The notes under the pieces are model-generated. The model had not been told where the DNA came from. It did not search any database and saw only the letters and a list, made by a program, of their open reading frames with translations. Position numbers and translations under genes: made by a program. A stretch of 64,000 nucleotides of DNA from Schmidtea polychroa (lineage: Eukaryota): positions 123,194,001-123,258,000 of the forward strand of contig CM097886.1 of assembly GCA_044892525.1 (NCBI GenBank), read 5' to 3'. Positions 42,646 through 45,600 of the stretch are shown here, in pieces (within the stretch, counting starts at the first letter, position 1; each line of letters opens with the position of its first letter).

Positions 42646-45600
42646 CTATCTAGTAAGAGTATCAATTCCACTTAGTTTTGGCATTGGTTCAAGTAAAAAT
42701 CTGGATTCTGGCTCCATTTTACTTTTTATTACACTTTTTCGAAAGCATTTATGTTCTGATTCGCCGTTGCTACTGTCATTGTTATGATCGTCGTTTTTGT
42801 CTTCCGACTGACATGTAGATTCCTCACTTCTCCGGCCATTTCTCAACTGCACTCTTACTCTTGACATTTCTTTAAATTGATGATCTGTAATAAAGAATCT
42901 GGCCAACAATGGAATACAGCCAATAATCAATTTCCATGACCATCCAGATATTGCATATATTCGATGTACTGATAATATCTGTGACACTATCACCTTTGCT
43001 GTTATCACGATTACGTAAATTCCGATTAAGCCTGCACATGCTTGTCCCAAAAACATGAACTTGCCCCAAATCTTTTCCATCGTTTTGTATGTAGCTCGTT
43101 TGAAATGATCAGGTGTTAGCAAATACTCGTAATTTACTTTTCCTTCCCCATTCGGTAATATCGTGTCAATCATTTCTGAAATTACTCGTTCTTTCTTAGA
43201 TGGAAACAACAAATTTCTTTGAGCTTCTTCAATATCCTCGCTTGGGTACAAACCCATTTGTGCCATTTTGTTTAATGATGTGAAATTTATCAGGTATTCT
43301 AGATTTGTTGATTCTAATTTGTCTGGAGTCTTGACTCCACGATAGTCTGGTAAAGCTATCCACGAATCTGTTGCTAATCGGTATAAGGGTGCTAATAATC
43401 TATTACATTGTAAAATCTTTGGTTTAGTTTGTTCATCAAGCAAAATTCTAGTTATCGGTTCCATAAATCGTATCTTTCCACCGAGGCTTACTGGTAATTC
43501 GTTTGTGCATTTTTCATATTTAGTAATTTTCACTGAGACTTCTTTGCATTTGTAACTGTATAACGCTTCTCCAAAAATTCTCGCAAACACGCCACTTTCT
43601 GATATTAGCATAGGTGCTACTAAATTTGGATTCGTAATTGCCATCGCCATTCGATTTCGAAGAATCTCTTTGTTCAGCTTGCAATCGTTTAGAATCATTT
43701 CTCTATATACATTTTCCCTGATGTTTTGACTAAAATGAAACAAATAATCAATTTTATTATTAAAATAATGAGTAAGTTTAATATCATCTCTGTGAATTTT
43801 AATTTTTGCCTCTTCCACAACATTTCTAGGCACATAAACGCCTTTATAATTTGTTACATACACCATTCGACCACATTTGTTGGTGATTTCCTTTTTTACA
43901 AATCGCATGCCATCTTCTGGTAATGTAGACATTAAAATTGTTCCCATTTGTTTTGTCCATATTGGAGTTGACTTAATAGTATCATTTGGTCTATATTTCG
44001 TATTAAAACTATCAGGTTTATCTCTAAACTGTTCTCCCACTAGCTCTTTAAAATTCATAGTTTTTAAGTGTGCTAAATTACACTTATTGGTTTCGACATT
44101 ATAGACAAGAATCGATTCCCCCGTTTGACAATTTGTTTGTTTCATATTACAGAATGGATGTGTTTGTAGCTTTCCCGTATCATCGTCGAAAGCTCCTTCA
44201 AATTCTCTTAACTCTGTTAGATATTCTTCCAGCACAACTGTGTGCTGAACAATTTTACCATTCATTTTGTATGGTTCACCTTCACAATCGCCATTTGCTT
44301 TCATAACTCCTTTTACAATTATTGTTTCTCGTATCCTATGATTCAATTTTGCCTTTAAACGAATTTCCGGACTTATTTTTAATTCTCCGGTTTGAAATGC
44401 TGTTAGACAGTTTTCTGGGAGTACCTCATTTGGCCTAGGTATCGCATGCATTTTTATAAGTGACGTATGACTCCATTTGCCACAATAGAATACAAATGTT
44501 GTATGTTTGACAATACACTCTCTTACTTGAGTTCTTCGTAAATCAGACTCTTGATACACGTAATATTTTATATCATTTTCTATTTTCAGTTTACTAGGAT
44601 ACGCACCTGGGCATTCCGACATATCAACTACTGAATAAATTTTTCCCATTTCAGTTTGGGAGCAATCATATGCAACTAATGATGATGTCTGCGTAATTAT
44701 TGCACAAAATGTAATCATCATAAACATTGCCCACGGAAATATCATAGTTTTTCTCAGTTCTGGTCGAACTCTCTCATTGACTCGTTTTTGAGATGGTTTC
44801 CTCTCTTGATTCTCGTTTTTCTTTTCTGTTAGAGACGAACACAGTGTTCTCCAACCACCATTTTCCTTTACCCAGTTCATTAGATATTCGTTTACTAGTC
44901 TGGCAGCGATGTCTATCAAGTTATCTAATTTATCTGATTTCGCGAACGCATACGTTCCAATTTCTAAAACAATATAAGTTAAAGCTGTTATTATCACATC
45001 CTTGTTAATTTCATTTTTTGTTAAATTTTCAATTACTGATCTCTCGCAAAATGTATCCTCTTCCCCAAATTTCTGTACTACTTCAGGCAGTCTATTTTTC
45101 ATTTCTTTAACTACTCCTTTTAGTTCATCCTTTACTTCTATCTCTATTTCGAACATCGGATATACTGCTTTAACGAGACGTTTCAAAACGTCCTTAGTTT
45201 CGTCTACATCTTGTTCTAACCTCACTAAATATTTCTTTATTTCATATAAAGTTCTAACTTTCTTCTTTTTGCTTTCACCATTTGTTTCGCTTTCTGGTAC
45301 AAGTGGCTCTCCTTGTACTGTTTCTGTAGACTGATCTTTTTTATCCAGCTCCTTCTGATCATCACCACTAACGATTTCCTCAATTTCTTGATTTCCATTT
45401 ACTTCTTCACCTTGTGCTTCTGTGTCAGACTCGCTGGACTTAATCTTGATTTCTAAACTTATTCCCTTTACTACAACTATATGGTTCACTAAATATCCCG
45501 CTCGTCCATCTCGGATCAAACATACATTTTCACCCAGCTCTTGTGGAATACATCCGCAATCATATAAATATTCATCATCATCAAGTTCTTCACCTTTGTA

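Follow-up and report, generated by a model that had tools for sequence, protein, structure and literature searches.

A probable, recently dead and 3'-truncated GAG-ENV-POL retroelement of Schmidtea polychroa with a chuvirus-type glycoprotein and a predicted Bcl-2-fold domain

The locus described here is a probable Ty3/gypsy-type long terminal repeat (LTR) element with an envelope (env) glycoprotein, G, in a 64,000-nucleotide stretch of Schmidtea polychroa DNA (assembly GCA_044892525.1, contig CM097886.1, positions 123,194,001 to 123,258,000; hereafter the window, in whose coordinates positions are given). Its closest described systems come from planarians. Chary and Hayashi (PMC13524379) report Smed_errantivirus_1 and Smed_errantivirus_2 from Schmidtea mediterranea as platyhelminth Ty3/gypsy errantiviruses in GAG-ENV-POL order, with an env that is HSV/gB-type (HSV, herpes simplex virus) and of cysteine class C1a; 45 and 215 intact copies are given, respectively, and a table there lists 63.7% for one against the other. 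The term 'Bcl' does not occur in the main text of that paper, whose figures may annotate extra domains. Arkhipova and Yushenova, in section 7 of PMC6431247, treat Burro/GYPSM1 as giant planarian LTR elements (citing Grohme 2018 and Jurka 2007) and give Burro as gag, Ubi/SUMO-like, BCL2-like, env and protease-reverse transcriptase-RNase H-integrase (PR-RT-RH-IN) in one frame. According to that section, the Burro env lies between BCL2 and PR and matches mononegavirus fusion proteins/glycoproteins, and decaying Burro fragments are noted in another planarian. In mosquitoes, Anakin is a BEL/Pao element with a chuvirus G (PMC7642597), and a follow-up reports no clear gypsy capture in arthropods (PMC10084718).

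Our analysis indicates that the locus is, very probably, a recently dead, 3'-truncated and compact planarian-type Ty3/gypsy GAG-ENV-POL errantivirus with a Burro-like layout. The analysis shows the order of the domains, a class III fold for the modelled env, the Bcl-2 fold modelled ahead of it, and relatives in which Gag, Env and PR-RT-RNaseH-IN lie in a single frame. G is a new, dead member of a family already published from planarians.

Glycoprotein G and its relatives

A previous annotation made from the letters alone (the sequence-only reading) had placed an intact chuvirus (Jingchuvirales)-type glycoprotein at 42,850-44,745, in which a signal peptide, the chuvirus motif pattern, a transmembrane (TM) segment and a second hydrophobic segment follow one another. 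This pattern was confirmed through a motif search, with 12 of the 12 queried strings found in order in one stop-free minus-strand frame, the first, AYDC, at nt 44,673 and the last, GWSWKLIIG, at nt 42,945. Hydropathy of this frame agreed, giving a signal-like segment at residues 429-456 of the open reading frame, a TM segment at 991-1026 and a weaker second hydrophobic segment at 1026-1044. The profile search that had been proposed as a check was equally clear, with G matching Pfam PF24664 (Monjiviricetes_fusion) at E = 2.1e-85 and 287.5 bits against a curated cutoff of 27, well beyond chance. With the profile match, the signal, the cysteine scaffold (14/14 family cysteines kept) and the C-terminal TM all present, G is a member of PF24664. 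It keeps 89 of 99 conserved columns (nearest relatives, 0.87-0.98), and its ectodomain has two N-glycosylation sequons. A motif search of the whole frame found no furin site of the form R-x-K/R-R.

G is indeed where it had been placed; the sequence-only reading gave no strand, and G lies on the minus strand, with wider limits. The Met at 44,745 is internal and not a frame start; G runs from 44,745 to 42,649 as the final 699 codons of a stop-free frame of 1,129 codons (46,035 to 42,646, minus). No frame in the window is longer, and its start has Met codons near 46,029 and 46,005. This frame also encodes ubiquitin-like and Bcl-2-like domains upstream of G. Stop-free, as had been stated for its ectodomain, the glycoprotein is part of a longer frame whose Bcl-2-fold domain had been overlooked.

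An AlphaFold model of G was built from 45 sequences (predicted local distance difference test, pLDDT, 77; predicted template-modelling score 0.54). Among predicted viral structures, chu-like virus glycoproteins were the best matches (E = 4e-45, 17-20% identity), and among solved structures herpesvirus gB was the best (E = 3.6e-15) at modest TM-scores of ~0.35-0.43. The class III-like assignment of the sequence-only reading thus holds for the model, with a predicted gB/G-type fold and a putative role as fusogen. A phmmer search of the single frame against solved structures left G unmatched and gave Bcl-2 only at E of at least 0.33.

Word-indexed homology searches returned only 2 and 4 relatives, since the true relatives, being polyproteins, exceed the lengths that these searches covered, and a full HMMER search was needed. 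A phmmer search over 1.84 billion representatives gave 1,388 matches at E <= 1e-3, of which the best 150 were listed and 20 of these were scanned with Pfam. Among the best 150 of the 1,388, the best full-length matches were long polyproteins (26-44% identity), and stand-alone G proteins of ~650 residues came lower (21-28%). G regions from 116 of 160 proteins, minus three cluster duplicates, then provided 113 rows for tree building. The quick tree of all 113 placed the query and 12 polyprotein-type sequences on one side of a branch with SH-aLRT (approximate likelihood-ratio test) support of 98, and the careful tree of 32 chosen rows gave a clade of 13, the query plus 12, with support of 100/98. 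An aspartic protease follows G in the same protein in 10 of the 12 clade relatives, joined by RT-RNaseH in 5 of the 12; P0002 and P0011 terminate at the end of G. Upstream, gag is present in the same protein in P0005, P0009, P0014, P0018 and P0020, while P0005, P0011 and P0018 cross the junction on the side of the first ubiquitin-like (Ubl) domain in one frame. The spacing of signal, TM and protease is conserved among relatives. Two scans of genome contigs for sister-copy DNA found none, with 0/118 and 0/21 pattern matches confirmed.

Several polyproteins of the family have multiple aspartic-protease domains (P0005, P0152, P0007): four DSG-type matches come after G in P0005 and six in P0152, where ankyrin and C2H2 domains are present as well. 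P0008 (HBK71150.1), a Gag-Env-Pol polyprotein of the G family, was deposited as a protein of a Flavobacteriaceae metagenome-assembled genome and is probably eukaryotic contamination.

The G tree is unrooted, with Wufeng shrew chuvirus 2 as its only named chuvirus, and on these sequences it shows a separate old lineage and not the direction of the original exchange. That a retroelement recently captured a chuvirus G, whether in an Anakin-like event or through a Jingchuvirales endogenous viral element lodged in a retroelement, is very improbable. Such a capture would fit the PF24664 membership and the structural matches to chu-like virus glycoproteins, but the identity to the latter is only 17-20% and the retro-associated clade is deep (26-44% identity). 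Approximately unbiased (AU) tests rejected the query as sister to the G of Wufeng shrew chuvirus 2 (p = 2e-65) and as sister to a DUF5641+G protein of BEL/Pao type (p = 9e-47), and none of the 73 frames scanned has a BEL/Pao or RNA-virus polymerase domain. The analogy to Anakin drawn by the sequence-only reading is thus not supported as a family assignment: the gag is of the PF03732 type, env lies 5' of pol, the scanned relatives are likewise devoid of BEL domains, and G sits in its own clade, nested with neither the named chuvirus nor the BEL-type G. A fresh capture from a chuvirus is not supported either, as G belongs to a deep clade of retroelement polyproteins and the family is described in PMC13524379 and PMC6431247.

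A closely related published env is that of Smed_errantivirus_1. G residues 56-306 align with its env row in PMC13524379 without a gap, 251 against 251 residues, of which 189 are identical (189/251, ~75% by eye). This match, together with the weaker evidence of a neighbouring HD-domain fragment (below), bears out the suggestion that the host element is not of insect type. The element has the gag-env-pol order with a gB-type env, and an env close to a published member, and so very probably belongs to the GAG-ENV-POL errantiviruses.

Element anatomy and accessory domains

The element is a 3'-truncated, probably Ty3/gypsy-type element on the minus strand. Its order is LTR, primer-binding site (PBS) and gag, then two ubiquitin-like domains, a Bcl-2-fold domain, env and protease:

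48,548-49,377, minus: putative 5' LTR, TG...CA with 7-bp inverted ends; upstream edge tentative
48,526-48,543, minus: PBS, tRNA-Trp-like, 4 nt past the LTR end
48,207-48,533, minus: 70-bp tandem array in the 5' leader, 4.7 copies, 87% matches
46,600-47,941, minus: gag, retrotrans_gag capsid region and four CCHC knuckles; 3' edge approximate
46,026-46,211, minus: ubiquitin-like domain 1; the frame break near 46,030 comes after it
45,511-45,753, minus: ubiquitin-like domain 2 (by blastp, an internal duplicate of the first)
44,830-45,129, minus: Bcl-2-fold domain, in frame with env, ~28 residues ahead of the env signal
44,680-44,745, minus: env internal signal sequence (hydropathy; position matched in 12 relatives)
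43,066-44,679, minus: env ectodomain, chuvirus-type/HSV-gB-type class III fold (profile and model)
42,904-43,065, minus: env TM helix and second hydrophobic segment (hydropathy, model)
42,649-42,903, minus: env cytosolic tail/linker, ending at a TAG in frame with the protease
42,112-42,645, minus: retroviral-type aspartic protease (Pfam RVP, E = 5.2e-5; DSG at ~42,408)

The upstream edge of the LTR is tentative because a second LTR is not in the window: no second copy was found there by blastn. A 17-bp tandem array lies inside the putative LTR at 49,025-49,124. The PBS agrees at 11 of 12 bases with the complement of the Trp_CCA 3' 12-mer of PMC13524379 (supplement 1). Gag was identified through Pfam PF03732 (E = 3.3e-6) and zf-CCHC (E = 1.5e-11), with knuckles at 47,147, 47,063, 46,898 and 46,781. 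The env signal would be cleaved just ahead of the LVAYDC motif. Past the protease the element is cut off at ~42,110, and tblastn and blastn found none of its RT, RNase H, integrase or 3' LTR in the 64-kb window. Relatives P0007, P0008, P0016 and P0020 have the PR-RT-RH-IN order whose Ty3/gypsy RT-RNaseH-IN part is missing from this copy. A broken gypsy-type RT-RNaseH remnant of an unrelated lineage at 31,128-32,155 (minus) was considered as the lost pol and rejected: it is only 31-45% identical to six RTs of the family, which are 46-79% identical to one another, and is therefore taken as another element, 10 kb away. Troyka was also ruled out as the identity of the element, since CG...CG termini are required according to the abstract of PMC12440569 and the termini here are TG...CA.

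The first ubiquitin-like domain matched Pfam ubiquitin at E = 0.0073, under the curated cutoff, and polyubiquitin at E = 0.15. The second matched the first by blastp (E = 5e-6, 26/106 identical) and gave a weak Atlas lead to Rad60-SLD (0.76); it had no Pfam match of its own.

For the Bcl-2-fold domain, Pfam Bcl-2 gave only E = 0.021 with the single sequence. A Bcl-2 domain stands at the matching place in four relatives (P0002, P0004, P0011, P0018), and in leave-one-out profiles each of the five domains was found by the other four (E = 2e-4 to 3e-16). The five-sequence profile matched Bcl-xL at E = 1.4e-3. Nine other relatives with sequence upstream of G, some of which have only ~150-200 residues there, gave no match, and one more protein, P0138, matched weakly. 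A model of the domain (pLDDT 66) was compared with 48,161 chains in VIA, where ranks 1-32 were all Bcl-2-fold chains (best Z = 11.1, root-mean-square deviation 2.9, 114 aligned) and the first unrelated fold came at Z = 6.0; Foldseek agreed weakly (best E = 6e-3). Because the best Z lies below the caution level of 13 that the tool sets for helical bundles, the sequence profile shares the weight with it. Together the model and the profile support a full Bcl-2 fold for the BCL2-like motif. In the G tree the query and three of the Bcl-2 carriers do not cluster together (P0018 was too short and was left out), and the domain was therefore lost or gained more than once. Bcl-2 appears on this distribution to be a patchy module, present in compact elements too and not in giant Burro alone. 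An anti-apoptotic protein of Burro1 has reportedly been described recently, which the literature search did not return. The same search found no functional study of a planarian retroelement Bcl-2, by which no absence from print is claimed.

Directly past the truncation point lies a decayed Polinton/Maverick-like remnant (36,400-41,600, mostly minus), with a piece of protein-primed DNA polymerase B at 37,137-37,454 (E = 8.8e-8) and an adenovirus-type protease at 38,831-39,169 (E = 6.5e-7). By eye, a major capsid gene is suggested by the frames at 39,233-40,459; the searches gave no match and this reading is unconfirmed. Just upstream of this capsid-like frame, inside the remnant, a second, broken Bcl-2-like piece with W-x3-GGW lies at 40,560-40,972 (minus), which matches the retroelement Bcl-2 profile only at E = 0.03. 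If it is a true Bcl-2, two mobile elements, unrelated and each with a Bcl-2-like gene, would lie 4 kb apart.

Lesions, polyprotein topology and surroundings

Four breaks fall within the 1,943 codons from gag start through protease (5.8 kb): in gag, a frame break (near 47,850) and a TAG (47,478-47,480), and, on the upstream and downstream flanks of the 1,129-codon frame, a frame break (near 46,030) and a TAG (42,646-42,648). The two gag lesions and the stop-free ectodomain, which the sequence-only reading had taken as possible signs of youth or selection, are both real, but the copy also has the two flanking breaks and is truncated at ~42,110. Of its two explanations youth is the better one. 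The chance that all four breaks spare G is 0.17 and that they spare the ectodomain 0.28, and the chance of a longest clean stretch of at least 1,129 codons with four breaks is 0.15; with the two gag lesions alone the figures are 0.41 (G) and 0.53 (ectodomain). The stop-free G fits a chance placement of the lesions (p = 0.15-0.28) and does not speak for selection acting on this copy. Some 6% of single-base changes give a stop, and from the two stops we therefore estimate, by rough arithmetic, some 30-35 substitutions, or <1% divergence. Very probably, the intactness of G reflects the youth of the copy, with only four breaks in 5.8 kb, and not retention by the host. The locus would thus be a recently dead copy, unable to act as a full element.

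It is accordingly improbable that env has been domesticated, with the Ubl-BCL2-G frame kept by the host (e.g. as a cell-fusion or receptor-blocking gene) while gag and pol decay around it. The frame is the window's longest, has Met codons near its start and is flanked by breaks on both sides, as domestication would have it, yet a gap this long arises by chance in 15% of four-break placements, and the putative LTR, the PBS, the knuckles of gag and the protease motif have all stayed sharp, as a young copy would have them. The 14/14 retained cysteines could also be cited for domestication, as could the mosquito solo chuvirus-type glycoproteins proposed to be domesticated in PMC7642597, but the conserved-column retention (89/99) resembles that of the nearest relatives and speaks for constraint on the element lineage. 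The retained cysteines and columns show constraint in the active lineage and not after insertion.

Some points weigh against the errantivirus reading of the locus. The copy is without RT, so its probable placement in Ty3/gypsy is drawn from the type of its gag, from its relatives and from the match of its env, and the ~75% identity is an eye count over 251 residues and not the result of a tool. Had the exact 1,129-codon frame been named beforehand, the chance of four breaks missing it would be 0.03; the longest-gap figure of 0.15 is the fair one because that frame was chosen after the fact. Finally, programmed frameshifting or read-through could account for the breaks near 46,030 and 42,647, which would then not be lesions. 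Retroviruses commonly use such sites to keep the level of Pol below that of Gag and Env. The locus would then be a regulated element of three frames (gag, Ubl-BCL2-env and pol) joined by a frameshift and stop read-through, its damage limited to the two gag breaks and the truncation. Both extra breaks do fall at domain boundaries, after the first Ubl domain and between env tail and protease, and P0002 and P0011 likewise end with G. We nevertheless regard this as unlikely, since 10 of the 12 clade relatives go from G into protease without a stop, P0005, P0011 and P0018 span the upstream junction in one frame, and Burro is described as one frame (PMC6431247).

For the single-frame errantivirus we propose the following mechanism. 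In active relatives, a single Gag-Ubl-BCL2-Env-Pol polyprotein would be translated, and the internal signal would direct the G ectodomain into the lumen of the endoplasmic reticulum (ER), where signal peptidase would free the G N-terminus. The TM helix of G would bring the chain back to the cytosol, where the protease would release the Pol enzymes. With an internal signal and one TM helix, G would be luminal and both its flanks cytosolic; the second hydrophobic segment would then have to run along the membrane, because a crossing would make Pol luminal. The cut signal may stay on the Gag-Ubl-Ubl-BCL2 part as a C-terminal membrane anchor, ~28 residues past the Bcl-2 domain, and G trimers may act as the fusogen by which particles enter other cells. 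The proposed anchor topology is that of tail-anchored Bcl-2 proteins, and the flavivirus capsid, anchored by the signal of the next protein, is a parallel. Most likely, the predicted role of these domains in the element is an envelope for cell-to-cell spread with a death-suppressing accessory domain. More tentatively, and with some doubt on our part, the cut env signal peptide of these planarian elements could anchor the Bcl-2-fold domain as its C-terminal tail, such that the polyprotein yields a membrane-tethered Gag with an ER-anchored viral Bcl-2 and, besides, a class III fusogen. The element would then be infectious and would block the death of producing or receiving cells. If the anchor and the anti-apoptotic role were true, a retroelement would be using a trick known from large DNA viruses, and would do so in animals in which adult stem cells transmit the genome.

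The window is AT-rich and holds further remnants. A separate gag fragment at 13,416-13,904 (minus) resembles the gag of P0009 (E = 5e-11). DNA-transposon remnants on the minus strand (7,507-8,109; 17,091-17,630; 25,618-27,373) include a piggyBac-type DDE_Tnp_1_7 domain (E = 1e-43), BED or Spin-doc zinc fingers and a hAT dimerisation domain. A 467-bp element resembling a miniature inverted-repeat transposable element lies at 52,469-52,935 with 36-nt inverted ends (94%), and the region around it is partly duplicated at 54,988-55,864. Pieces of cellular genes on the plus strand comprise a PSP-domain gene piece at 2,509-3,000 (E = 9.5e-13), a decayed actin-like piece at 56,500-56,985 (E = 3.9e-5) and an HDDC2-like HD-domain fragment at 30,061-30,420 (E = 3e-14). 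The last diverges after ~50 residues; its top four matches are flatworms, the best named ones at 45-47%, and in its tree it forms a long branch in no supported group. At 60,081-61,797 (plus), a RING finger (E = 1.3e-4), a coiled coil and, by eye, a MATH-like stretch suggest a TRAF-like gene; the MATH domain suspected at 61,213-61,794 was not confirmed. TRAF genes are reported as expanded in planarians (PMC6109357).

Comparison with described systems

Chuvirus G (Jingchuvirales, PF24664) shares with the element G the protein family, the cysteine scaffold and the predicted class III fold; the element G differs in its 17-20% identity, its separate clade and its place in the polyprotein of a retroelement, where it follows an internal signal. 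Anakin is alike in being an LTR retroelement with a PF24664-type G as putative envelope, but it belongs to another superfamily, whereas the element here has a gypsy-type gag and no BEL/Pao domains. In the BEL-type match P0045, env comes after DUF5641, whereas here it stands ahead of pol, and the Anakin/BEL-type G lineage is separate from that of the element (AU p = 9e-47). A chuvirus G in a non-insect retroelement carries little weight as a novelty, given that publications already describe the family, the order of gag, env and pol, and the adjacency of BCL2 and env.

The Bcl-2-fold domain resembles the viral Bcl-2 homologues A179L of African swine fever virus, Bcl-2 of Kaposi's sarcoma-associated herpesvirus and iridovirus GIV66 in its predicted helical fold (Z = 10.4-11.1) and in a BH2-like W-x3-GGW motif. 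It differs from them in being without the NWGR BH1 motif and in being fused into a retroelement polyprotein. The locus thereby adds structural support for a full Bcl-2 fold of the BCL2-like motif, and a testable topology in which one polyprotein delivers Gag, fusogen and Pol.

With Burro, compared by its description, the element shares retrotrans_gag and CCHC, Ubi/SUMO-like, BCL2-like, env and PR in the same order, and an env in frame between gag and pol. The Ubl-BCL2-env-PR order after gag is thus apparently that of Burro, with the Ubl evidence lying under curated cutoffs. The two differ in size, the Burro ORF1 having 4,873 residues against the compact 1,943 codons here from gag start through protease, and the four knuckles and two Ubl domains of this copy are unlike the description of Burro. 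The MATH, BIR, ankyrin and Smc domains of the giant Burro frame were not found by Pfam in the 1,943 codons present. Smed_errantivirus_1 and _2 have the same GAG-ENV-POL order and a gB-type env, with env domains I-II colinear over 251 residues, and differ in being known from intact copies, whereas the copy here is broken and truncated. The S. polychroa element thus adds a compact example that joins the Ubl-BCL2-env layout of Burro with the Smed errantiviruses.

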